NCBI GenBank assembly: GCA_041651115.1
Contig: JBAZJY010000002.1
Location: 286,855-350,854 of the forward strand
Length of the DNA stretch: 64,000 bases
Reading direction: 5' to 3'
Source: Candidatus Omnitrophota bacterium
GTDB taxonomy: Bacteria > Omnitrophota > Gorgyraeia > Gygaellales > Profunditerraquicolaceae
Shown: positions 422-52,274 of the stretch, one piece after another
Position numbering within the stretch: the stretch's first letter is position 1
How the letters are laid out: each line of letters begins with the position of its first letter
Program-made: the position numbers and the translations under genes
Notes under the pieces: model-generated
Told to the model about the DNA's origin: nothing
Databases searched by the model: none
What the model saw: only the letters and a program-made list of their open reading frames with translations

Positions 422-1696
422 ATGCTTGATCTTAAAGCTCTTGATCTGTTAATTTTTATTTCAGCTTACCTGCTCTTTGTTATCCTTCCTGGCCGCAGGA
501 TGCCGGTTGCCGTAGGCGCGGCTGTGTTAATGGTCTTAACAGGGATAATCTCATTAAAGCAGGCTTTTTTTGCGGTTAACTGGAATGTAATGGGGATTTT
601 CGTCGGAACGCTGGTCATCGCAGATATTTTTATGGAAAGCCGTGTTCCGGCATATATTGCCGAAGTTATCGTAAACAAATCGCGCAATACCGCCTGGTCA
701 ATACTATTGATCTGCGCTTTGACGGGTTTTATTTCTGCTTTTGTGGAGAATGTTGCTACGGTTTTGATCGTTGCTCCCATCGCCTTATCGCTGGCCAGGA
801 AATTACAGATCAGCCCGGTAAAAATGATGATTGCTATTGCAGTGTCTAGTAATTTACAGGGAGCGGCAACCTTAATCGGCGATCCGCCAAGCATGCTTTT
901 GGGCGGTTTTGCCAAAATGAACTTCGGAGATTTCTTCTTTTATCGCGGCCGGCCGAGCATATTTTTTGCCGTTGAGATAGGCGCGCTCGCTTCATTTGCC
1001 GTGCTTTATTTTATTTTCCACAGCCATAGGAAAAAGGTGGCGCTGATAGCGGTAGAGAAGGTACGGTCATGGTTTCCTACGGCCTTGTTGGTAAGCCTGA
1101 TCGTTTTACTTGCATTATCGTCTTTTCTTGATACCGGTTTCACGTATATGGCAGGCATATTGTGTATGGCGTTTGCCGTAATTGCGGTAATCTGGGAAAA
1201 ATTCATCAATAAAGGCTCGGTGGTCAAAGGCATAAAGTCCCTTGATTGGGATACAACCTTTTTCTTGATCGGGGTATTTATCCTTGTCGGCAGTATTGCG
1301 CTTAGCGGATGGATAGAGGTGATTTCCGGGCTGCTTGCCGGGATGATCGGTAAAAACATATTTCTCGGCTATACCCTTTTGGTATTTATTTCCGTTATTC
1401 TTTCCGCGTTTATAGATAATGTGCCGTTTCTGGCCGCGATGCTTCCGGTAGCGATCTCGCTTTCTGATAAACTCCAGGTTCATCCGTCGCTATTTCTCTT
1501 CGGTTTACTTATCGGAGCGAGCTTAGGCGGCAATATCACTCCGATAGGCGCCTCGGCAAATATCGTTGCCTGCGGCCTGCTGAAAAAAGAGGGCTATGAG
1601 GTGAAATTCCCGGAATTTATGAAGATCGGCGTGCCGTTTACGCTGGCTGCAGTAACTACGGCTTATTTATTCGTCTGGTTTATCTGGAAAAACTAA
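422..1696 (+). CDS. Polytopic anion permease, ArsB/NhaD (ion-transporter superfamily) type
   Basis: 424 aa, >10 predicted TM helices, duplicated halves with GDPPSMLLGG-like motif typical of ArsB/NhaD/CitMHS-type permeases; family assignment from memory only. Confidence 0.5.
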   Translation: MLDLKALDLLIFISAYLLFVILPGRRMPVAVGAAVLMVLTGIISLKQAFFAVNWNVMGIFVGTLVIADIFMESRVPAYIAEVIVNKSRNTAWSILLICALTGFISAFVENVATVLIVAPIALSLARKLQISPVKMMIAIAVSSNLQGAATLIGDPPSMLLGGFAKMNFGDFFFYRGRPSIFFAVEIGALASFAVLYFIFHSHRKKVALIAVEKVRSWFPTALLVSLIVLLALSSFLDTGFTYMAGILCMAFAVIAVIWEKFINKGSVVKGIKSLDWDTTFFLIGVFILVGSIALSGWIEVISGLLAGMIGKNIFLGYTLLVFISVILSAFIDNVPFLAAMLPVAISLSDKLQVHPSLFLFGLLIGASLGGNITPIGASANIVACGLLKKEGYEVKFPEFMKIGVPFTLAAVTTAYLFVWFIWKN

Positions 1697-1711
1697 ACAG
1701 GGGGTGCCGGA

Positions 1712-2038
1712 ATGGAAATGTTCCATGATCTGATAAACGCGGTTAGTTTTGCCCTGAACATTATCGGGGCGCTGGTGATTATCTGGGGCGTGATCATCAG
1801 CCTGATGGAATTCTTTCAAAGCGCGGCAGCGGAAAAAGGCGACTGCCTGAAGTGTAACGAAATCATCCGCCTTAAGCTCGGCAGCTACCTGGTGCTCGGC
1901 CTTGAATTTTTCATTGCCGGCGACATCATCAAAACCATAATCACGCCGACGTGGCAGAGCCTGGGCATGCTGGGAGTGATCGTGGTTATCCGCACCATCC
2001 TAAGCTATTTTTTGACAAAGGACCTGAGGAAAATATAA
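1712..2038 (+). CDS. Small membrane protein (DUF1622-like)
   Basis: 108 aa, two hydrophobic helices, sequence pattern recalled as DUF1622; RBS GGGGG upstream. Confidence 0.45.
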   Translation: MEMFHDLINAVSFALNIIGALVIIWGVIISLMEFFQSAAAEKGDCLKCNEIIRLKLGSYLVLGLEFFIAGDIIKTIITPTWQSLGMLGVIVVIRTILSYFLTKDLRKI

Positions 2039-2046
2039 CAAGGTAA

Positions 2047-4272
2047 ATGGAAAAGATCATTATCGGTATCCGGGGCATGCACTGCGCTTCCTGCGCCGTA
2101 AATATTGAAAAGTCTTTACGCGGCAGGGACGGAGTGGCCAGCGTAAACGTAAATTTTGCCTCGGAAAAGGCTTACCTTGAATATGATCCCGGTAAAGTCA
2201 CCCCTCCGGATTTAGAAAAAATAATTGAAAAAACAGGTTATCAGGTTGTTAGGCCCGCTGCGTTGCCGAAAGGGATAGAAGAGGATACCGGCCTTGACCG
2301 GGAACTGGTTTTGCGGCGCAAGGAAATATCGGCTGCCAGGATAAAATTTTTTATTTCATTACTGCTTTCCCTGCCGCTGATGTATTTCGGCATGGGCGGA
2401 AAATTCTCTAATATGGCGCTTGTGCAGTTTGTCCTGGCAACCCCGGTGTTGTTTGTCGGGTATCAATTTTTCACCCGTGGCCTGGCCGCTGTTATTACCG
2501 GGGGCAGCGCGAACATGGATACGTTGATCTCTCTTGGTGTGGGATCGGCTTATCTTTATAGTTTATATTCTTCGGTAATGATCTGGACAGGCAGGCAGCA
2601 CGCTGCCATGGAAGGCCTTTATTATGAGACAGCGGCGTTTCTTATTACCTTTATCCTTTTGGGCCGGCTCCTTGAAGCGATTGCCAAGGGCAAGGCTTCC
2701 GAAGCCATAAGAAAGCTTTTGGGTTTACAGCCGAAAACAGCGGTAGTGGTCAGGGAAGGCAAACAAGTAGAGATCCCCGTTAAAGAAGTCATTACCGGGG
2801 ACATAGTAGTGGTAAGGCCGGGCGAAAGGATCCCTGCCGACGGTATAGTTGTTGAGGGCCATTCCAGCGTTGATGAATCAATGATTACCGGCGAAAGCAT
2901 GCCCGTGGAAAAGACAACAGGCAGTCTGGTAACCGGAGCAACCATTAATAAAGCCGGCGCATTTAAATTCCGGGCAACGCGGGTCGGTAAAGATACGGTC
3001 TTGGCGCAGATCATCCGCTTGGTTGAGCAGGCCCAGGGATCCAAGGCACCTATCCAGCAGCTGGCTGATAAAATTTCCGCTTATTTTGTCCCGGCAGTGC
3101 TTTTGACCGCGATAGCAGCATTTCTCATCTGGCTGCTGTCCGGCGCGGAATTCAGCTTTGCTTTAAATATATTTATCTCAGTATTGATCATTGCCTGCCC
3201 ATGCGCCCTGGGCTTGGCTACTCCTACCGCGGTAATGGTAGCTACTGCCGTAGCTGCAAATAACGGCATCCTGATAAAAAATGCCCGTAGCCTGCAACTT
3301 GCCCATAAAATAAAAACGATCGTCTTTGATAAGACCGGGACTTTAACAAAAGGCAGGCCCGAGTTAACTGATATTGTTTCGGTAGGTAGCCTCAGCAGGC
3401 AGGAGGTATTAAAATATGCCGCCATCGCGGAAAAACGTTCGGAGCATCCCCTGGCAGAGGCGATGGTGGAAGCGGCAAAACAAGAAAATTTGGATATTCC
3501 CGACCCGGAAGCGTTTAATTCCCTTACCGGAAAAGGCGTGATCGCCCGTTTTAACTCGGAGATAATTGTTCTGGGTAACCGGAAATTATTCGTTGATCGG
3601 GGCATTGATATTTCCCGCTGGGAAGATAAACTAAGCGCGTTGGAAACGCAAGGCAAAACCGCGGTCTGCGTAAGTTATAAAAATGAGGTCATCGGGATTA
3701 TAGCCGCTTCGGATACGCTTAAGGAATTTTCCCGTAAGGCAGTAGATGCGCTAAAAAAACCGGGCAGGCAGGTATTGATGATTACCGGAGATAACCGCGT
3801 TACTGCCGCAGCGATTGCCCGCGACCTGGAAATAGACCGGGTCATTGCCGAGGTCCTGCCTCAGGAAAAGGCAGCGGAGATCAGAAAGTTGCGTAAGGCC
3901 GGGTCAATAGTGGCGATGGTCGGCGACGGGATCAACGACGCGCCTGCTTTGGCGCAGGCAGACATCGGTATTGCCGTCGGCGCAGGCACGGATATCGCGC
4001 TTGAATCGGCGGACATCGTGCTGATGAGCGATGACCTGCGTGACGTCTCGGCAGCCATAGACCTGTCGCGTTACGCGATGGAAAAGATCAAACAAAATCT
4101 TTTTTGGGCATTTATTTATAATATTATCGGCATTCCGGTTGCCGCGGGCATACTCTATCCCTTTTTTGGCTTCCTCCTCAACCCGGTGTTAGCCGGCGCG
4201 GCAATGGCATTCAGCTCGGTATCGGTAGTAGCTAATTCTTTGCTGATGCGCAGCTATAAGAAAAATATTTGA
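2047..4272 (+). CDS. copA: Copper-translocating P1B-type ATPase
   Basis: 741 aa; N-terminal HMA domain [15 protein letters not shown]; TM CPC motif ([10 protein letters not shown]); DKTGTLT phosphorylation site; GDGINDAP hinge. Confidence 0.9.
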
Positions 4273-6045: not shown

Positions 6046-6275
6046 TGTTTTCTGGTTGTCCCGGGCAGGATAAACGGAATATTAAGGTTGAGTCAATCGC
6101 TTGTACGGCGTGCGGCTACGCAGTGGAGATATTTTCTGATGAGGCGAGGCAGAAATGCCCGAAATGCGGAAATTGGGCTAACCGCCAGAAGCTTGCCTCT
6201 TGCGCCTTGTGGTGCAAATCCGCCCGGGAGTGTATCGGTGAAGAGCGGTGGGAACAATTAATCAGGGGAGGTTGA
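6042..6275 (+). CDS. Small Cys-rich zinc-ribbon-like protein
   Basis: 77 aa, 8 Cys including CTACG...CPKCG ribbon pairs; overlaps rrf2 stop, immediately precedes hcp. Confidence 0.45.
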   Translation: MMFSGCPGQDKRNIKVESIACTACGYAVEIFSDEARQKCPKCGNWANRQKLASCALWCKSARECIGEERWEQLIRGG

Positions 6276-6278
6276 AAA

Positions 6279-18883: not shown

Positions 18884-18901
18884 TTCTCCAGTATTTGTTC
18901 A

Positions 18902-18945
18902 AGGGCCGTTTCTTTTTTTGAAAAGAAACGGCCCTTTCATTTATT
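18902..18945 (+). terminator. Intrinsic terminator (15-bp stem AGGGCCGTTTCTTTT/AAAAGAAACGGCCCT with flanking T/A runs; potentially bidirectional)
   Basis: Read directly downstream of 18883 stop. Confidence 0.65.
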
Positions 18946-19024
18946 AAAAAAATACTTGACAAATTATTGTTCTCATGTATACTATACTATGTTGATAGAG
19001 TTAATAGAATAAAGAGGAAAAAAG

Positions 19025-19465: not shown

Positions 19466-19477
19466 AGGAGAAAATAC

Positions 19478-19564
19478 GTGGCCGTTTATTTCTATGATAA
19501 TACGATGATGTGTTATGCGGTAATGATGTGCCGCCTCTTTGGTGGGGAGGGGCCTCCTATGTAG
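19478..19564 (+). CDS. Candidate Met/Cys-rich leader peptide MAVYFYDNTMMCYAVMMCRLFGGEGPPM
   Basis: GTG 7 nt after SD AAAGGAG; 28 codons with 5 Met codons (two ATG-ATG pairs plus a final ATG) after the GTG initiator, and 2 Cys; two MMC triplets; 30 nt upstream of intrinsic terminator and met/cys biosynthesis operon. Confidence 0.4.
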   Translation: MAVYFYDNTMMCYAVMMCRLFGGEGPPM

Positions 19565-19593
19565 CATTATTACGATATATATAGGATGGACAG

Positions 19594-19626
19594 CCCACTA
19601 CCGAGGAGAGCGGTCAGTGGGTTTTT
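19594..19626 (+). terminator. Intrinsic terminator: CCCACT-A-CCG aggagag CGG-tc-AGTGGG followed by TTTTT
   Basis: Read directly; an alternative pairing of CCTC..TGGTGGG (19536-19548, inside the leader ORF) with CCCACTA..GAGG (19594-19606) could act as anti-terminator. Confidence 0.6.
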
Positions 19627-19657
19627 ATTTGGTGCAAATTAAACTTAGGAGGGAAAA

Positions 19658-21138
<1,481 letters not shown>

Positions 21139-37914: not shown

Positions 37915-38030
37915 GGCCGCAACTTATGGAGCGGATGGCGAACATAAGTTGCTTGGCCGAACTTACCCCCGCAGCTTCGCTTTGCGAAGCAAAGCGGCGG
38001 AGGTTAATTCGCGCAAATGATTTACTCGCA
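37913..38030 (-). repeat. Extragenic palindromic element B (inverted copy of element A core plus CGCTTTGC-GAA-GCAAAGCG hairpin)
   Basis: 37913-37975 reverse-complement aligns to 33978-34041 with few mismatches. Confidence 0.55.
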
Positions 38031-38061
38031 CTTTCGTGTTCGTAAATCATGCGCTCATTAA

Positions 38062-39018
38062 ATGCATAATAAGATCATTGATTTCCTGAAACGCAAACAC
38101 GAATATGTTTCCGGTGAAGAAATCAGCAGTCATCTAAAAGTGAGCAGGCAGGCATTGTGGAAGCACATTGAAGCCCTGCGTGATTCCGGGTATGAGATCG
38201 TCGCTGTGCCGCATCTGGGGTATAAGCTTGTTTCCGTGCCTGACCGGCTTTTTCCTTCGGAAATAGAAGCCGGCCTAAAGACAAAATTTATTGGAAAGAA
38301 GATATATTATTTTGATAGCATTGCCTCAACAATGGACATGGCAATGCAGCTGGGAATGAAGCAAGCAACAGAAGGGACAATTGTCTTGTCTGAAGCGCAG
38401 CATAAAGGCAGGGGCAGGATGGGCAGGGACTGGGCATCGCCAAAATACAAGGGCATATATATGTCCTTGATACTCAGGCCCGAAGTCTTTCCCGGCCAGC
38501 TGCCCATACTTACGCTTCTGGCTGCGGTAAGCATCTGCGAGGCAATAGGGCATGAGACAGGCCTGGAGGTAAAGATAAAGTGGCCTAATGATATTTTTAT
38601 TCATAATAAGAAACTCGGCGGCATCCTGACTGAATTAAGCGCTGAGGCTGATGAAGTGCGTTTTGTGGCCATCGGCATAGGCCTTAATGTAAACAACGAT
38701 AAAAAATCGCTGGTTAGCGGAGCAACGTCGGTAAGGGAAGAAAAAGGCGAAGCAGTCAGCCGCATATCCCTGTTTCAGGAAATCTTGCGCAGGATAGAAG
38801 AGAATTACCTGGTCTTCCAAAAAAAAGGCCCTAACCCGGTAACCGACAAATGGCGCCAGTATAATATTACCTTAGGCATGAGGGTAAGGGTGGCTTTTCA
38901 TAAGCATCACCTGGAGGGAGAGGCTAGCGATATTGACTCCGACGGCGCGCTTTTAGTGCGCAAGGATTCCGGGATAGTGCAGAAGGTTACTGCCGGAGAT
39001 GTCGTGCACTGCAGGTAA
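38062..39018 (+). CDS. birA: Bifunctional biotin-[acetyl-CoA-carboxylase] ligase / biotin operon repressor
   Basis: 318 aa; N-terminal HTH; GRGRMGR biotin-binding loop; KWPNDI. Confidence 0.85.
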   Translation: MHNKIIDFLKRKHEYVSGEEISSHLKVSRQALWKHIEALRDSGYEIVAVPHLGYKLVSVPDRLFPSEIEAGLKTKFIGKKIYYFDSIASTMDMAMQLGMKQATEGTIVLSEAQHKGRGRMGRDWASPKYKGIYMSLILRPEVFPGQLPILTLLAAVSICEAIGHETGLEVKIKWPNDIFIHNKKLGGILTELSAEADEVRFVAIGIGLNVNNDKKSLVSGATSVREEKGEAVSRISLFQEILRRIEENYLVFQKKGPNPVTDKWRQYNITLGMRVRVAFHKHHLEGEASDIDSDGALLVRKDSGIVQKVTAGDVVHCR

Positions 39019-40931: not shown

Positions 40932-41963
40932 ATGGACGAATTATTAAGGAAACTATTGAACGCATCGGGAGTATCCGGGCATGAAAGCGAAATTGCCGGA
41001 ATAATGCAGCAGGAACTCAAAAATAGCTGCGATGAAGCGAGCATTGATAATTTCGGCAATGTCATTGCCCGCAAAGGAAGCGGCGGTAAAAAGATCATGC
41101 TTGCTGCGCATATGGACGAAGTCGGGCTGATGGTCAAGCATATCTCTAAAGACGGATACATAAACTTTATTAAGGTCGGTGGAGTTGATGACCGGATCCT
41201 GCCGGGTCAGCGCGTGGTGGTCAAAGCCAAAAAAGGCGATGTTTTAGGCATCATCGGGAGCAAGCCGCCGCATCTTCAGAAAGAAGAAGAGAAAAAGCAT
41301 CCAATAAAATACGAAGATATGTTCATTGATATCGGCTGTAAGAATAAAGAAGAGGCGCTGGAAAAAGTATCGCTGGGAGACTCAATGATCTTTGAGCCGA
41401 ATTGCGGCGAGCTAAGCAGCAAGCTCTGTTATGGAAAGGCGGTTGATAACCGCCTTGGCTGTTTTATTTTATTAAAAGTAATGGAGCGGTTGAAGGTCAA
41501 TGCAGAAGTTTACGCCGTGGCTACTGCGCAGGAAGAGGTCGGCTTAAAAGGCGCTAGGACATCTTCGTTTAAGGTTAACCCGGATTTTGCTATTGCCATA
41601 GACACGACCATGGCCGGAGATACGCCCGGTATCAAAGAAAGCGAGACCCCGCTGAAATTAGGCGAAGGACCGGCAATCATCATGATTGAGGCCAGCGGCC
41701 GCGGGTTTATTATCAGCGAAAAGACAAAAGATATTTTTATTGAAACCGCCAAGGAGCATAAGATAAAGCATCAGGTCGCGGTAATTGAAGGCGGCATGAC
41801 CGACGGCGCAATGATCTATATGAACCGCGAAGGCGTGCCCACCGGCGTTTTGAGCGTGCCGACGCGTTATGTGCACGCGCCCACCGGCGTATTCAGCCTT
41901 GACGACATCAATAGCGCCATTGACCTGACAGTAAAAGTTGTCGAAAAAGTTGCCAAGATATAG
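40932..41963 (+). CDS. M42-family aminopeptidase (FrvX/PepA/CelM-like)
   Basis: 343 aa; metal-binding His/Asp/Glu pattern (HMDEVG, DNRLG, EEVG). Confidence 0.8.
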   Translation: MDELLRKLLNASGVSGHESEIAGIMQQELKNSCDEASIDNFGNVIARKGSGGKKIMLAAHMDEVGLMVKHISKDGYINFIKVGGVDDRILPGQRVVVKAKKGDVLGIIGSKPPHLQKEEEKKHPIKYEDMFIDIGCKNKEEALEKVSLGDSMIFEPNCGELSSKLCYGKAVDNRLGCFILLKVMERLKVNAEVYAVATAQEEVGLKGARTSSFKVNPDFAIAIDTTMAGDTPGIKESETPLKLGEGPAIIMIEASGRGFIISEKTKDIFIETAKEHKIKHQVAVIEGGMTDGAMIYMNREGVPTGVLSVPTRYVHAPTGVFSLDDINSAIDLTVKVVEKVAKI

Positions 41964-41974
41964 TTATTGATGAT

Positions 41975-42415
41975 TTTGCTGGGCCTGCCTTGGGTAGTTT
42001 CTCGCGGGGACGTTCGCCCCGCCCAGCGTGCGGGGCCTCACTCGGAAGAAATTCTCGCTCTGCCTTAACGTAAGCGAGGGCAACCGTGCCCGCTCGAATT
42101 TCTTACGCCCCGCTCAAAACCACCCAAGTCACCCGCAAAATCATAAACAATTAGCCTATAAAATGAATCTGGCGGCTATTCGAGCGGATTAGGCGATTTT
42201 AGGCGGTTTGCTATGCTTATGCGAAGGGTTTTGTTCGCGCGCATTGTAAACTCTTGCCAATTCGTTCCAGAGATCAGTCGGCAAGGCTTTACGGCGAGTG
42301 AAAGCCCTAATGTTACGAAAGTATGCCTGAGAGCGAGCTGTAAACCGTAGCCGACGGCAAGATGTTTGCAGCGCGCGAAGCAAAGCCCTGAAGCATAAAG
42401 CATGACAATGCAGAC
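41975..42415 (+). ncRNA. Candidate structured non-coding RNA region(s): module 1 (about 41975-42130) of nested hairpins; module 2 (about 42205-42412) a >200-nt imperfect rod
   Basis: 470 bp without credible ORF, GC clearly above local average, dense complementary segments (e.g. CTTGGGTAGTTT/AAACCACCCAAG; CGGAAGAAATTC/GAATTTCTTACG; TTTGCTATGCTTATGCGAAGGG...CCCTGAAGCATAAAGCATGACAA); strand unknown. Confidence 0.25.
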
Positions 42416-42432
42416 GCTAAATTCGAAATGAT

Positions 42433-43521
42433 ATGATGAAAAAGAAAATACGCGTGGTGGTGGCGATGAGCGGAGGAGTGGATTCTTCGGTTGCCGCCGC
42501 CTTATTACAGAAGCAAGGCTATGAAGTTATCGGTATTACGATGTGCTTTAACCTGCCGGATGCCGTTACGAAGAAGCCGCGCTGCTGCGGCCTGAAAGGC
42601 ATTGAAGACGCGCGGCGCGTGGCGCATAAGCTGGGGATAAAGCATTATGTCTTAAATATGCAAAAGGCCCTGGAAGAAAAGGTGATCAGGGAATTCTGCC
42701 TTGAGTATTTAAGCGGCAGGACGCCCAATCCTTGCGTCAGGTGTAATCAATATATAAAATTTGACGCGTTGCTAAAAAAGGCGCTTTCTTTGGGAGCACA
42801 ATACCTTGCTACCGGCCATTACGCGCGGATCACAAAGGCATATTTATTAAAAAAAGCAAAAGACCTGCGCAAGGACCAGTCTTATTTTCTCTATCGCCTT
42901 AGCCAAAAACAATTAAAACATATTTTATTCCCGTTGGGCAATTATACGAAAGAAGAAGTAAGGAAGCTGGCAAAGGGGTTTGCCTTACCGGTCGCGGAAA
43001 AGGCAGAAAGCCAGGAAATCTGTTTTCTTCCCCGCAATAACTACCGCGAATTTCTGGAGCATAAACTGCCCCAATATAAAAACCGTTTTAGTAAAGCGAT
43101 TAAGCCCGGGCCTATCGTTGATACGCAGGGAAAAACCGTTGGCCAGCATAAAGGCATTGCGTTCTATACTATCGGCCAGCGTCAGGGGTTGGGTATTGCC
43201 TTTGGCCGGCCTGTCTATGTGATAAAGATCAACAGCCGCAATAACCGCGTAGTCATTGGCACAAAAGAAGAAGCAGCCAGCCGGGAATTTTTAGTAAAAG
43301 ACACGCATTATCCCTGCCGACCTATAAAAAAGAAAGTTGCGGTAAGCGTTAAGATAAGGTATAATCACGCTGAAACACCTGCAGAAGCAGCCCCATGCGG
43401 TAAATCCTTAAAGGTTAAGTGTAAAATGCCTCAGTTTGCGGTTACTCCCGGACAGTCCGCGGTATTTTACAGTAAAGATACGGTGATCGGCGGCGGTATC
43501 ATAGATAAGGTGATAAGCTAA
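42433..43521 (+). CDS. mnmA: tRNA-specific 2-thiouridylase
   Basis: 362 aa; PP-loop SGGVDSSVAA; catalytic Cys. Confidence 0.9.
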   Translation: MMKKKIRVVVAMSGGVDSSVAAALLQKQGYEVIGITMCFNLPDAVTKKPRCCGLKGIEDARRVAHKLGIKHYVLNMQKALEEKVIREFCLEYLSGRTPNPCVRCNQYIKFDALLKKALSLGAQYLATGHYARITKAYLLKKAKDLRKDQSYFLYRLSQKQLKHILFPLGNYTKEEVRKLAKGFALPVAEKAESQEICFLPRNNYREFLEHKLPQYKNRFSKAIKPGPIVDTQGKTVGQHKGIAFYTIGQRQGLGIAFGRPVYVIKINSRNNRVVIGTKEEAASREFLVKDTHYPCRPIKKKVAVSVKIRYNHAETPAEAAPCGKSLKVKCKMPQFAVTPGQSAVFYSKDTVIGGGIIDKVIS

Positions 43522-45047: not shown

Positions 45048-45821
45048 TTGATCATGAGTATAATACAGGCGGTTATTTTCGGGATTGTAGAGGGCATCAC
45101 GGAATTCCTGCCTATTTCTTCTACCGGGCATCTGATGCTTACTGCCCGGTATCTGGGCATAGCGCAGACAGAATTCGTAAAGAGTTTTCAAATCGCTATT
45201 CAATTCGGCGCGATCCTTGCGGTAGTAGTCCTGTATTGGAAAACGCTGGTTAAAGGCGGCAGTATCTGGGCTAAGCTTTTGGCGGCTTTTCTGCCTACCG
45301 CAGTGATTGGCGCGTTGTTCTATAAAATCATCAAAGGCTTCCTGCTTAACAGCAATAGCGTTGTACTTTGGGCTTTGTTCTTGGGAGGTATCGCTTTGAT
45401 CATCTTTGAATTTTTTCACCTGGAAAAGGAAAACGCCGCAGGGACGCTGTCAGAGATATCTTATCCGCAAGCGCTGATGATCGGTTTATTCCAATCGCTG
45501 GCGATTATCCCGGGCGTTTCACGCGCAGCCGCGACTATCGTCGGCGGCCTGAGCGCCGGGCTCAAGCGCAAAACGATAGTAGAATTTTCTTTTTTACTTG
45601 CCATACCCACGATGGTTGCGGCAATGGCTTTGGACCTTCTAAAAAGCGCGGTTGCCTTTAATCGCAGCCAATTCCTGGTGCTGGCCGTGGGATTTCTGGT
45701 ATCGTTTATTGTCGCGCTTATAGCGATCCGTTTCCTGCTTGTTTTTATTAAAAGGCATACTTTTATTCCGTTCGGCATATATAGGATAATCATAGCGTTA
45801 ATATTCTGGTTTATTTATTAG
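45048..45821 (+). CDS. uppP: Undecaprenyl-diphosphatase
   Basis: 257 aa; BacA motifs (EFLPISSTGH, PGVSRAAATI). Confidence 0.85.
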   Translation: MIMSIIQAVIFGIVEGITEFLPISSTGHLMLTARYLGIAQTEFVKSFQIAIQFGAILAVVVLYWKTLVKGGSIWAKLLAAFLPTAVIGALFYKIIKGFLLNSNSVVLWALFLGGIALIIFEFFHLEKENAAGTLSEISYPQALMIGLFQSLAIIPGVSRAAATIVGGLSAGLKRKTIVEFSFLLAIPTMVAAMALDLLKSAVAFNRSQFLVLAVGFLVSFIVALIAIRFLLVFIKRHTFIPFGIYRIIIALIFWFIY

Positions 45822-45893
45822 GGACGGTTCTCAGCCAAGGAGAAAAATGTCCCCGAATGGGGACACTTTTCCCTTGGTCTGAGAACCGTCCCT
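45820..45893. repeat. 74-bp palindromic extragenic element copy 1 (TTAGGGACGGTTCTCAG...CTGAGAACCGTCCCTAA), starts on uppP stop codon
   Basis: Near-identical to 46804-46876 (loop GAAT vs AAAA); embedded AAGGAG-N5-ATG mini-ORF MSPNGDTFPLV. Confidence 0.7.
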
Positions 45894-45905
45894 AAGGAGA
45901 GAATA

Positions 45906-46805
45906 ATGAGTATTATCGTTCTTGGCACTGTAGCATTAGACACCGTAAAAACGCCTTTTGGCGTAAGGAAACACATGCTCGGCGGTTCTGCCGTGCATTT
46001 TTCCATGTCTGCCCGGCTGTTTACAGATGTAAATTTAGTCGCGATCATCGGCGAAGACTTTCCCCGTAAGCATATTGATTTCCTGCGCAGGAAAGGGCTT
46101 AATCTGGCTTCGCTTATCCGTACGCCGGGTCAAACTTTCAAGTGGGCAGGTGAATATCGCGGCGACCTTAATGCCGCGCTTACCCTAAGTACGGAATTGG
46201 GCGTGCTTTCTACTTTTCAGCCGCGGGTATCCGAAGCGCAGCGGAAAATAAAAAATATCTTTCTGGCAAACGTTGATCCCGATGTGCAGGAGCATCTCTT
46301 AACTCATATGCATTCTCCGGATCTGGTGGGCTTAGACAGCATGAATTTTTGGATAAAAAATAAGCGCCGCAGCCTGCTTAAGCTGCTTAAGCGGGTGCAT
46401 ATTTATGTTGCTAATGACCAGGAGGCAAAGGATTTGACCGGAGAGCATAATCTGATCAGGGCTGCTAAACGGCTACGCGGATTTGGGCCGCGGATTGTTC
46501 TGATCAAAAAAGGAGAGCACGGCGTGTTTTTATACAGCGATAAATTCATTTTTTCCTTGCCGGCGTATCCGACGGATAAGGTGATCGATCCTACCGGCGC
46601 AGGCGATACATTTGCCGGCGGCCTGATGGGTTATTTGGCAAAGGTAAAAAAAGTTAACATGGCTACCTTAAGAAAGGCAGTGGCCTATGGTACAGTGGCT
46701 GCTTCGTTCAATGTGGAAGGTTTCGGGGTTACCGTGACTGCCGGCCTTACGCTTAGCCGGCTGGAAAAAAGGCTTAAAGTTTTCCGCGAATCAGTTCTAT
46801 TTTAG
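45906..46805 (+). CDS. PfkB-family carbohydrate kinase (ribokinase-like)
   Basis: 299 aa; DPTGAGDTF anion-hole motif. Confidence 0.75.
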   Translation: MSIIVLGTVALDTVKTPFGVRKHMLGGSAVHFSMSARLFTDVNLVAIIGEDFPRKHIDFLRRKGLNLASLIRTPGQTFKWAGEYRGDLNAALTLSTELGVLSTFQPRVSEAQRKIKNIFLANVDPDVQEHLLTHMHSPDLVGLDSMNFWIKNKRRSLLKLLKRVHIYVANDQEAKDLTGEHNLIRAAKRLRGFGPRIVLIKKGEHGVFLYSDKFIFSLPAYPTDKVIDPTGAGDTFAGGLMGYLAKVKKVNMATLRKAVAYGTVAASFNVEGFGVTVTAGLTLSRLEKRLKVFRESVLF

Positions 46806-46876
46806 GGACGGTTCTCAGCCAAGGAGAAAAATGTCCCCAAAAGGGGACACTTTTCCCTTGGTCTGAGAACCGTCCC
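46804..46876. repeat. Palindromic extragenic element copy 2, starts on kinase stop codon
   Basis: See copy 1; embedded mini-ORF MSPKGDTFPLV. Confidence 0.7.
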
Positions 46877-46894
46877 TAACCATGGAGGAGAGAA

Positions 46895-51859: not shown

Positions 51860-51926
51860 GATCTTAACGATCCTGCGGTAAGGAACCATGCGGTTCTGAA
51901 ACTAAGGGAAAGAGCGAGGAAAAATT

Positions 51927-51970
51927 GTCCCGATCTTTTCAGCAGGAACGAAGAGGTCGGGACTTATTTA
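51927..51970 (+). terminator. Putative terminator hairpin GTCCCGA-N23-TCGGGAC + TTATTTA
   Basis: Read directly after hndD stop; weak T-run. Confidence 0.35.
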
Positions 51971-52015
51971 TAATGATCCGTTTTGCGGGTCCTGCCTAAA
52001 AGGATGGAGGAGTTT

Positions 52016-52267
52016 ATGGAACGCAGGTTGGGATTTGTGGGGATTATCGTTGAGAACAGGAAAGCCGCGGCAGCCAGCGTGAACAAGGTACTTTCTGATT
52101 CCGGGGAGATCATCGCGGCAAGGATGGGCCTGCCGTACGCCAAGAAAAATTGCTGCGTGATTACCCTGATCGTTGACGCGACTACGGATGAGGTGGGCGC
52201 CTTGACCGGAAAGCTGGGCTTGATAAAAGGCGTATCGGTTAAATCCGCGCTGAGTAAATGCGGATAA
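52016..52267 (+). CDS. TM1266-like small ACT-fold protein (putative iron-only hydrogenase system regulator)
   Basis: 83 aa from ATG 52016 (SD GGATGGAGGAG); family recalled as co-occurring with hydEFG. Confidence 0.55.
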   Translation: MERRLGFVGIIVENRKAAAASVNKVLSDSGEIIAARMGLPYAKKNCCVITLIVDATTDEVGALTGKLGLIKGVSVKSALSKCG

Positions 52268-52274
52268 AAGAATA

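Follow-up and report, generated by a model that had tools for sequence, protein, structure and literature searches.

What fills the 469 nt that separate an M42 family peptidase gene from mnmA, the gene for a tRNA 2-thiouridine synthase, in a Candidatus Omnitrophota bacterium? We addressed this question for the spacer at 41964-42432 of a 64,000-nt stretch, hereafter the window (contig JBAZJY010000002.1 of assembly GCA_041651115.1, positions 286,855 to 350,854 of the forward strand; coordinates below are those of the window). Comparative sequence analysis shows that this spacer is a head-to-head pair of elements, modules 1 and 2, from an uncurated superfamily of interspersed, strand-specifically folded Candidatus Omnitrophota elements. 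The same comparisons show that the helices have evolved by compensatory change, that junction and loop letters are fixed, and that some copies have been deleted, replaced or inverted. The best reading overall, which we consider probable, is that of an old, selected, rearranging structured repeat, comparable to repetitive extragenic palindromes (REPs) and enterobacterial repetitive intergenic consensus (ERIC) elements and working as a folded single strand.

The Spacer Consists of Two Highly Structured, Noncoding Modules

A sequence-only reading had described the region as free of open reading frames (ORFs), GC-rich and built of two separate structured modules, either a structured noncoding RNA (ncRNA) or a non-autonomous mobile element, which were indeed the right alternatives to weigh. 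The spacer contains no credible gene. Its only ORFs are short and overlapping, encoding 54 and 45 aa on the plus strand and 75 aa (42176-42403) and 64 aa (42189-42383) on the minus strand, the latter two being those already judged non-protein-like. Its GC richness is mild, with 51% G+C in the spacer vs. 46.8% across the window. As a single strand, the spacer folds with -193.9 kcal/mol (z-score -7.8) on the plus strand and -186.6 kcal/mol (z-score -6.25) on the minus strand, none of 100 shuffled sequences folding as well, and it is among the 4 of 17 intergenic gaps of at least 80 nt in the window that reach a z-score of -7 or lower. Both this fold and the family comparison described below bear out the division into two separate, highly structured, noncoding modules.

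Most of the helices predicted earlier could be recovered, including CTTGGGTAGTTT/AAACCACCCAAG, CGGAAGAAATTC/GAATTTCTTACG and GGGCA-ACCG-TGCCC in module 1, as well as the arms of module 2. Two details had to be revised. The GCGGGG of the proposed local hairpin GCGGGG-ACGTTC-GCCCCGC is paired in the family alignment with a distal CCCCGC (helix P2), and GCCCCGC...GCGGGGC forms a separate hairpin (P5). The proposed UACGAAAGUA "GNRA" hairpin sits in the variable tip of module 2 and is unconserved among relatives. What the sequence-only reading had overlooked is that the modules lie on opposite strands, module 1 on the minus and module 2 on the plus strand. An outer A/T-rich inverted repeat lengthens the closing helix of module 1, and a comparable A/U-rich extension is present in one of its relatives (locus L019).

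Module 1 Belongs to a Large Family Folding into a Three-Way Junction

BLAST and nhmmer identified relatives of module 1 in the second half of the M42-mnmA spacer at locus L003, where it has the opposite orientation, 1.2 kb upstream of mnmA at L019 and 1.7 kb downstream of mnmA at L022. Compensated changes were apparent at 14 of 35 pairs in the comparison of just these three sequences with the window. A 21-base pattern derived from the four sequences, when scanned on Joint Genome Institute (JGI) metagenome contigs, matched more than 116 stretches, which is a lower bound; among the matches listed, about 5 of 106 distinct ones are chance and the others are clear members of what we call family 1. 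We aligned 76 family-1 sequences with MAFFT (alignment A5) and built a covariance model, R1, which finds 105 full-length copies in 610 kb among the matches listed; these 105 copies, fitted to the model, form alignment A8, in which the window copy aligns with 104 others.

The compensatory change in relatives that had been suggested as a check is abundant in the helices of family 1. In A5, 86.4% of the cells at paired positions are paired vs. 32-50% in slid controls, the covariation score is 0.434 vs. at most 0.126, and 39 of 53 pairs have changed on both sides. The corresponding values in A8 are 90.6% vs. at most 44%, 0.487 vs. at most 0.118, and 43 of 53 pairs, with 1037 cells altered on both sides, and none of 500 shuffles reaches any of the five measures. 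Thirteen copies lying outside the scan pattern keep the identical conserved letters.

The consensus element, with the ends (U)UUAGCGGG ... CCCGCUAA(A), is composed of three arms. Both ends together form arm A, in which a GCGGG/CCCGC helix and the conserved asymmetric loop UGA//GGCAGGA are followed by a helix of 12 bp, a CGAGC/GCGAG step and a helix of 7 bp. Arm B comprises helix P3, a CGAGC/GCGAG tandem G.A, a conserved strand GAGCGGGCAYGG opposite AGA, and a hairpin, P4, of variable length and sequence. In arm C, a CGAGC/GCGAG tandem G.A is followed by hairpin P5, which exposes a conserved loop CACGCUGG and whose stem shows two-sided change at 9 of 9 pairs, with 97.7% of cells paired in A8. 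About 45 unpaired or junction letters are fixed family-wide, and the junction strand GAGCGGGCACGG in arm B would be a candidate recognition or tertiary-contact site. We do not claim a kink-turn at UGA//GGCAGGA: its letters fit partly (kink-turn position 2b is G, not A), and variants with GCGGC/GGCAGACGC form a near-continuous helix. Some family-1 copies are longer, 200-255 nt (L114, L118, L127, L145 and L193), owing to insertions of 30-80 nt; in those read so far, the insertion is in the variable hairpin (L127 and L193) or in the arm C region (L114).

The Fold Is Carried by One Strand

In 115 of the 116 family-1 copies listed, folding favors the sense strand (minus in the window), with a mean advantage of 10.4 kcal/mol. 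In the window, module 1 folds with -95.5 kcal/mol on the minus strand vs. -83.8 on the plus strand, and module 2 with -108 to -110 kcal/mol on the plus strand vs. -85 to -89 on the minus strand. The better fold of one family-1 strand is due in large part to its three CGAGC/GCGAG steps, which read as tandem G.A pairs on that strand and as U.C/C.U mismatches on the other. Tandem G.A pairs in such a context are a well-known stable arrangement in RNA thermodynamics. Moreover, G.U pairs are far commoner than A.C in helix P1b (61 vs. 6). From the strand-specific stability, the G.A motifs and the P1b excess taken together, we therefore conclude that selection acts on the fold of just one strand, present as RNA or as single-stranded DNA, and that it does not act on a duplex DNA site.

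These features bear on a simple explanation, namely that the modules are passive stable hairpins that terminate transcription or stabilize mRNA 3' ends without specific recognition. Elements are indeed placed directly after stop codons, and their folds are very stable on both strands. However, no U-run follows the stem on either strand, the 5' flank being U-rich and the 3' flank A-rich, which extends the helix; the strand with the better fold usually runs antisense to the gene that it abuts; and the roughly 45 conserved unpaired or junction letters would be superfluous in simple hairpins. We thus regard passive hairpins as very unlikely. An intrinsic terminator in particular was rejected, since there is no U-run and, on both strands, the family consensus is A-rich in its 3' flank.

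Module 2 Represents a Second Family That Pairs Head-to-Head with the First

Taking the family-1 strand as reference, a second conserved element of 220-280 nt lies upstream of many family-1 copies. This family 2 has two branches. One, family 2a, to which the first half of the L003 spacer belongs, has at least 17 matches to its nhmmer profile; the other, family 2b, comprises module 2 of the window, L164, L142 and L168 (the nhmmer profile set) plus at least 11 further copies, at least 15 in total. The arms of family 2b show compensatory differences (alignment A7). Located 5' of family 1, family 2 has its better fold on the strand opposite to that of its family-1 neighbor (9 of 9 cases). The basal arm of family 1, UUUCGAGCG...GCGAGAAA, recurs in family 2 when the latter is read on its own better strand, and family 2b adds an internal GGCGAG/GCGAGCC step. 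The CGAGC/GCGAG basal-arm motif is common to family 1, family 2 and a set of "minis," elements of 70-95 nt that consist of the basal arm alone and stand head-to-head with family-1 copies. Strong minis, as scored by R1, occur in L022 (40 bits), L128 (47 bits) and L204 (70 bits).

The head-to-head arrangement is the rule. Family-2 copies face family 1 in nearly all loci, and the close pairs of family-1 copies are oriented (-,+) in 12 cases and (+,-) in none. In the window, the 5' ends of the doublet face each other across a short A/T-rich spacer and the 3' ends abut the flanking genes. That spacer contains motif M (AAATGAATCTGGCG); elsewhere, family-1, mini or family-2 elements lie between M and its complement, which are some 200-240 nt apart. 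A doublet of the same type, family 1 plus family 2b, occurs at two unrelated loci, the window and L164. Between some family-1 pairs we found ORFan or membrane proteins, a SIR2_2 protein, an ORF6N protein and, in one case, an IS200-like Y1 transposase. The idea that the spacer specifies a single RNA of about 450 nt, with the plus strand of the spacer equivalent to the reverse complement of the L003 unit, was discarded: the halves belong to different families, their best strands are opposite, and relatives carry the halves singly or with other partners.

A further possible member of the superfamily in the window is a weak R1 match. The gap at 37915-38061 (147 nt, between a cysteine desulfurase-like gene and birA) contains three hairpins and folds with a z-score of -7 to -8; the hairpin nearest birA is this possible mini, and the middle one holds a 12-mer also present in the M42-mnmA spacer. 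The sequence-only reading had tied the spacer to a repeat at 37985-38000 through this 12-mer. The match is exact (37984-37995) and at chance level (blastn E = 3.9), so that the tie does not hold through the 12-mer. What does resemble module 1, weakly and as a mini (E 0.66), is the adjacent hairpin at 38001-38064.

Family-1 Copies Are Old Paralogues Kept by Selection

All the contigs that bear or flank family-1 copies and have an organism name are from Candidatus Omnitrophota, most metagenome contigs carrying no name. R1 found no match in 299 kb of non-Omnitrophota mnmA loci, and the family-1 pattern had no match in 2.9 million viral contigs, so a phage origin was rejected. We counted three full family-1 copies across 144 kb of Omnitrophota loci anchored on mnmA, a single one in the 64-kb window, and about a dozen extra ones in 610 kb around anchored copies. 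By extrapolation, the density would be about 1 copy per 40-60 kb, hence dozens per genome. The search for additional copies that had been suggested found many in Omnitrophota loci and no second full copy in the window.

Pairs of family-1 copies on the same contig are mostly 56-76% identical, where the family median is 62.5%, apart from one distant pair (L123) at 88%. For 27 of 30 copies, a closer relative is found on another contig, with up to 97% identity. These identities show family-1 copies to be old paralogues. One of them is located at the 3' end of trpF in five species, always in the same orientation and abutting the stop codon, and is 80-92% identical where the TrpF proteins are 60-81% identical. 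Since the element is more conserved than TrpF across the five species, this individual copy is, judging from the alignments, under purifying selection. Elements are likewise retained at the cysS locus and at that of an 800-aa synthetase.

The M42-mnmA Junction Has Been Repeatedly Remodeled

Five relatives whose MnmA proteins are 78-89% identical display five different states of the M42-mnmA junction. In the window, family 1 on the minus strand is followed by family 2b on the plus strand. The closest relative found (L002, MnmA 84-85%) has no spacer at all, the M42 and mnmA genes overlapping; because of its gene ends, this empty state is probably a secondary deletion that fused both genes and not a preinsertion site. 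In L003 (MnmA 79-80%), a 450-nt spacer holds family 2a (-) and family 1 (+); it is equally structured (z-scores -7.6 and -7.1) and has no whole-length alignment with the window spacer. L203 has family 2a (+) alone, with no family 1, and L204 has family 1 (-) and a mini (+).

L003 and L203 are sister lineages with 88.7% identical MnmA proteins. Their family-2a copies are mutually closest (0.88 identity vs. at most 0.80 to others) and lie in opposite orientation between the same two genes, which is, as far as these alignments tell, an in-place inversion of an orthologous element. By contrast, the family-1 copies of the window and L003 (0.71 identity) are not orthologous, since each is closer to copies at other loci (0.83-0.86). 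In more distant relatives the adjacency of the M42 gene and mnmA is lost. In L206 (671-2501) and L205, with 73% identical MnmA, the M42 gene is absent, and a gap of 30 nt, free of any repeat element, separates mnmA from a TonB-dependent receptor gene, so that the junction varies in gene content as well as in repeats.

Turnover also takes place elsewhere. Two contigs that are 90% identical (L120, 3188-4060, and L109, 8815-9495) differ by the replacement of one block, which contains one family-1 copy and an unrelated membrane ORFan (223 aa vs. 184 aa) and ends at motif M (AAATGAATCTGGCG). This looks like a cassette-like exchange beside repeats. Elements therefore do move, invert or undergo replacement at the DNA level, albeit slowly.

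Do these rearrangements point to a classical, recently active miniature inverted-repeat transposable element (MITE) derived from an insertion sequence with a DDE transposase? The modules are palindromic, intergenic and multi-copy, they are missing from the closest relative (L002), and a 5-bp GATAT, possibly a direct repeat, is present near both borders of the window spacer. As for terminal repeats, each module is itself an imperfect palindrome, and a CCUGYC-like motif is all that the outer ends of the doublet have in common. However, a GATAT repeat is expected by chance. Same-contig copies are 56-76% identical, there is no second copy in the window, covarying internal helices and conserved loops are not expected from neutral decay, no transposase-bearing relative exists among 781 neighboring ORFs, and L002 looks like a secondary deletion. 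This origin is thus scarcely credible. The sequence-only reading had offered a rule, that many identical copies would indicate a MITE and anything else a dedicated ncRNA. The outcome fits neither branch: there are many old, diverged copies with compensatory change, and one copy is kept orthologously across deep divergence while the M42-mnmA junction is rearranged between close relatives.

Elements Abut Gene Ends and Lack Conserved Promoters and Terminators

About 60% of family-1 copies run antisense to the genes beside them, and about 40% run in the sense direction. The element's 3' end faces a convergent gene end in 58 cases, in 27 of which it lies within 10 nt of the stop codon, and a gene start in 41 cases, at a median distance of 57 nt. 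The 5' end lies about 150 nt from genes because the partner element occupies that side. By design, therefore, a doublet between codirectional genes has its first module antisense and its second sense. This is the order in the window, which reads M42 stop codon, family 1 (antisense), spacer, family 2b (sense), 8 nt, and mnmA start. If transcription reads through, family 2b would be in the mnmA leader in sense orientation.

Scans of the window found no convincing sigma-70 promoter in the spacer at 42144-42192, the only candidate being a weak minus-strand match at 42225-42196, and no terminator-like site within 41900-42500. A central bidirectional promoter was rejected, as there is no conserved motif and the facing spacers are as short as 8-30 nt.

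The lack of such signals has to be set against the possibility that the spacer is a divergent pair of trans-acting small RNA genes from two multi-gene families, transcribed outward and encoding, for example, protein-binding or scaffold RNAs, with paralogue-specific sequences that would give each copy its own identity. Much of the evidence would suit such genes. Covariation is strong, junction and loop letters are fixed and the fold is strand specific; paralogues have diverged and orthologues are conserved, as for a distinct RNA gene family; orientation is independent of neighboring genes; and, in some copies, a TATAAT resembling a -10 box precedes GCGG by a few bases (L101 and L168, with TATGAT in the window). 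Nevertheless, no promoter motif is conserved across copies and no terminator follows, the two 5' ends in L003 being about 9 nt apart; the abutment of the 3' end to a convergent stop codon in 27 of 58 cases is positional rather than gene-like; and essential RNA genes would not usually come in mini versions, carry internal insertions or be gained, lost and inverted so rapidly at one junction. Overall, we find this explanation improbable.

The Superfamily Resembles, and Differs from, Known Elements

No Rfam 15 family accounts for these elements, 6S, RNase P, tmRNA, SRP, OLE, ROOL, GOLLD and HEARO included. At gathering score, neither the window nor any of 20 Omnitrophota loci gave a match. At E values up to 10, the Rfam scan that had been suggested for the spacer returned nothing but a chance match to sR2 (12 bits), and nothing relevant appeared at E values up to 1 in six loci with strong family members. 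ARAGORN found no tRNA and no tmRNA in the window. The earlier suggestion of a 6S-like rod is not supported. Module 2 is like 6S RNA in being about 200 nt with a long closing helix formed by both ends. However, its predicted fold is near-continuous with small loops, no large central bubble and a variable tip, and module 1 is a three-way junction instead of a rod with a central bubble. Both modules are multi-copy, with 105 family-1 copies in 610 kb, often two per contig, and at least 15 copies of family 2b, where one or two genes per genome would be expected of 6S RNA.

ERIC elements, also known as intergenic repeat units (IRUs), of enterobacteria are imperfect intergenic palindromes of more than 100 bp, found in either orientation and conserved across genera at orthologous positions. 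They form a single long hairpin, exist in longer versions with an internal insertion and in shorter ones, and their effects are thought to be at the RNA level. The Omnitrophota elements are similarly kept at orthologous positions (trpF in five species) and have long and mini versions. In contrast to ERIC, they are from another phylum and unrelated in sequence, and family 1 is branched, has a strand-specific motif and pairs head-to-head with a second family. MITEs such as Correia/NEMIS elements, as well as the Rickettsia palindromic elements, are short, noncoding, palindromic and dispersed sequences located at or in gene ends. The presence/absence or positional polymorphism between close relatives at the M42-mnmA junction is reminiscent of these elements, but here there are no near-identical copies, no parent insertion sequence and no defined terminal repeats plus target-site duplication, and the internal structure is under selection.

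Integron attC sites share with these elements a folded single strand, structure kept over sequence in helices, a strand bias and adjoining ORFan "cargo," including an ORF-plus-element unit exchanged between otherwise syntenic contigs. They differ in that here sequence is also conserved across genomes, not structure alone. An attC identity was rejected: the ends UUAGCGGG/CCCGCUAA mismatch RYYYAAC/GTTRRRY (a minority of copies have GTTAGCG, which still breaks RRRY), partners are head-to-head and not in direct arrays, and most neighbors are housekeeping genes.

Close, too, is the likeness to REPs and to the composites that they form, bacterial interspersed mosaic elements (BIMEs) and the REPINs of Proteobacteria, which are defined as two inverted REPs and are associated with REP-associated tyrosine transposases (RAYTs) (PMC3337134; PMC3116915). 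Like these, the Omnitrophota elements are intergenic, multi-copy, folded as single strands, arranged as inverted doublets and located beside gene ends (PMC3116915; PMC3337134); they also show very long vertical persistence, as do REPIN-RAYT systems (bioRxiv 10.1101/2021.07.10.451892), and no target-site duplication could be defined for them. However, a REP is a simple hairpin of 20-40 nt with a GTAG-type 5' motif, whereas the present modules are branched, 175-270 nt long, and have a three-way junction, three tandem G.A motifs, conserved loops and the ends UUAGCGGG...CCCGCUAA. Unlike REPs and REPINs, the copies form no tight sequence population within a genome.

A REPIN-like mobile doublet in the strict sense would be non-autonomous and move as single-stranded DNA, its basal arm being recognized by a single-copy HUH/Y1-type or other recombinase. 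It would undergo excision, insertion and inversion without target-site duplication, and its fold would be kept because a hairpin has to be intact to serve as a substrate. Inverted doublets are the rule here as in REPINs (PMC3337134; PMC3116915), the fold is strand specific with structure conserved over sequence in the helices, and no target-site duplication was seen. In addition, one junction has five states, including an in-place inversion; family 1 and family 2b are associated both in the window and at L164; a segment with a family-1 copy and an ORFan was swapped between 90%-identical contigs; and long vertical persistence is known for REPIN-RAYT (bioRxiv 10.1101/2021.07.10.451892). On the other hand, no cognate enzyme was found, and the divergence within a contig equals that of the whole family, giving no sign of a replicating master sequence. 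The 80-92% conservation of an orthologous copy across deep divergence amounts to purifying selection at the level of the locus, and this would not be expected of purely selfish elements; the modules, at 175-270 nt with a three-way junction, are far above REP size; and orientation is only weakly biased with respect to gene direction. Purely mobile doublets are therefore unlikely in our view.

The sole Y1_Tnp protein near a copy (L099; Pfam E 1.4e-6) is IS200-like and has no homologue in the other loci. We rejected this RAYT-like protein as the mobilizing enzyme, since its gene is flanked by its own classical GTAG-type REPs, GTAGGGAC...GTCCCTAC. At this locus (834-3399), the IS200-like Y1 (RAYT-type) transposase gene, amid several REP hairpins, and a SIR2_2-domain gene lie between the two members of a family-1 pair, an arrangement that looks like a small defense or mobile island between two structured repeats.

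A Selected, Rearranging Repeat That Probably Acts as a Folded Single Strand

Among known elements, REP/BIME-REPIN and ERIC are nearest because locus-level purifying selection is combined with occasional rearrangement, a combination that is unlike a recent MITE and unlike a one-per-genome ncRNA. In the reading that we favor, each module would be a folded single strand, RNA or transiently single-stranded DNA, the conserved unpaired letters of which would be recognized by a conserved factor of the host or of the element. The pair would behave as a REP/BIME-, REPIN- or ERIC-type element, spreading or rearranging rarely and being retained afterward because its fold acts locally. The likeliest local role would be to mark or protect the ends of neighboring transcripts; in the window, family 2b would do so in the mnmA leader and family 1 facing the end of the M42 gene. 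As for the working form, a cis-acting RNA is our tentative first choice, a single-stranded DNA substrate of a recombinase or transposase is possible but rather doubtful, and independent trans-acting RNAs, like any other form, appear improbable.

Several observations weigh against this reading. On the side of the fold, the scan required 21 exact bases, which biases the family-1 sample to conserved members and forces some letters to be invariant, and A8 was fitted to the model structure, which inflates its pairing counts. G.U exceeds A.C by 102 to 57 overall, but this excess is small outside P1b and reversed in P5, so that the strand call leans largely on the three G.A motifs. On the side of mobility, no target-site duplication is definable from the borders of L002, L003 and the window, and no cognate RAYT flanked by these repeats, nor any partner protein, was found among element-bearing loci. 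Clustering of 781 ORFs from 116 such loci revealed no recurrent protein family near copies other than housekeeping genes, the largest cluster consisting of spurious ORFs that overlie the element itself. Copies per genome were extrapolated from fragments, not counted on a complete genome. Regarding expression, an orientation ratio of about 60:40 is not what would be seen with a strict mRNA element or under a strict replication-strand rule, sequence scans detected no conserved promoter upstream or terminator downstream of either module, and the distance of about 9 nt between the 5' ends in L003 leaves no room for a central promoter.

A bolder alternative, which we regard as somewhat unlikely, is that the superfamily is a new class of element, a phylum-wide set of strand-specific three-dimensional modules, alike in a basal arm with tandem G.A and having distal domains whose junction letters are fixed, that would be active nucleic-acid machines and not passive hairpins. 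In one version, an undescribed system of single-strand recombination or inversion would reshuffle intergenic DNA and ORFan cassettes, using the modules as its folded ends or substrates; in the other, the modules would be a catalytic or protein-scaffolding RNA of a new kind, with dozens of paralogues per genome. Persistent structured intergenic repeats are known as a kind; the branched, two-family and phylum-specific form with a one-strand motif appears, from our comparisons, to be absent from Rfam 15 and the literature searched.

To our knowledge, long-kept repeats are uncommon in the genomes of bacteria, and the persistent ones, REP/REPIN and ERIC, are simple hairpins of debated biology. The present elements are more elaborate, with two related families and branched folds of 175-270 nt in an uncultured, ultra-small-celled phylum. 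Purifying selection and rearrangement co-occur in them, and copies sometimes border swapped ORFan genes. If they are RNAs, they would be among the most abundant uncatalogued structured RNA classes of a bacterial phylum, missed by Rfam-style annotation of Omnitrophota; if they are single-stranded DNA substrates, they would be the sign of an unknown recombination system. The alignment and model make their function testable on existing metagenomes and metatranscriptomes.

Flanking Genes and Other Structured Sequences in the Window

The features of the locus are listed in Table 1. The TAG stop codon of the M42 gene (41961-41963) abuts the 3' end of the convergent family-1 copy. The best MnmA homologues carry the name Candidatus Omnitrophota, and the MnmA of the window is likewise from Candidatus Omnitrophota metagenome-assembled genomes. 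The public gene call for mnmA (P0001, 351 aa) begins 11 codons past the ATG at 42433 (42433-42468). A reading of 362 aa is more likely, to judge by homologues, which retain the RVVVAMSGG segment, and it is with this longer start that only 8 nt separate module 2 from the start codon. An exact look-up of the M42 protein of the window and of the 351-aa MnmA P0001 returned the source contig alone, ENA ERZ27247363 k141_3084633 of 487 kb, the 362-aa form being unrecorded.

Table 1. Positions of the paired elements, their parts and neighboring features in the window
Feature	Position	Strand	Description
M42 family peptidase gene	40932..41963	+	Upstream flank; Pfam PF05343, E 8e-98
Outer A/T-rich inverted repeat	41961..42153 (arms 41961-41982, 42132-42153)	.	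22-nt arms, 82% complementary; includes M42 stop codon
Family-1 element (module 1)	41971..42143	-	About 175 nt, three-way junction; R1 153.9 bits, E 3e-42, full model length
Family-1 arm A	5' and 3' ends of module 1	-	GCGGG/CCCAG closing helix; CGAGC/GCGAG-type tandem G.A; helix P2
Hairpin P5	42016..42037	-	Stem GGCCCCG/CGGGGC, conserved loop CACGCUGG
Conserved junction strand GAGCGGGCACGG (arm B)	42084..42095	-	Invariant or near-invariant in 76 and 105 copies; pairing inconsistent across the family
A/T-rich spacer between the two 5' ends	42144..42192	.	Motif M AAATGAATCTGGCG (42161-42174, plus), then TTCGAGCGG
Family-2b element (module 2)	42193..42424	+	Long branched hairpin, GGCGAG/GCGAGCC tandem G.A, variable tip; 3' end 8 nt before mnmA start
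mnmA (tRNA 2-thiouridine synthase)	42433..43521	+	Downstream flank; Pfam PF03054, PF20259, PF20258
Possible mini, UGAGCGCAUGAUUUACGA...GCGAGUAAAUCAUUUGCGCGAA	38001..38064	-	Weak R1 match, 8.6 bits, E 0.66; gap fold z-score -7 to -8

Across the window (1-64000), credible genes are nearly all on the plus strand, with no tRNA gene and no Rfam match at gathering score. Two near-identical 78-nt sequences, 1 kb apart at 45818-45895 and 46802-46879, are near-perfect palindromes (UUAGGGACGGUUCUCAGCCAAGG...CCUUGGUCUGAGAACCGUCCCUAA; z-scores -12 to -16). They look like a young REP/MITE-type repeat, unlike families 1 and 2, with TAGGGAC ends resembling the GTAGGGAC REPs that flank the RAYT gene of L099. 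The sequence at 18884-19024, with a 16-bp perfect hairpin (AAGGGCCGUUUCUUUU/AAAAGAAACGGCCCUU) and A- and U-rich flanks, looks like an ordinary two-way intrinsic terminator, which suggests that this genome uses classical terminators. Finally, three gaps fold better on the plus (gene) than on the minus strand and have no Rfam match: 51860-52274 (-141 vs. -100 kcal/mol), 19466-19845 (-100 vs. -70 kcal/mol) and 6046-6278 (-78 vs. -55 kcal/mol). On the basis of these predicted folds, they may be structured leaders.

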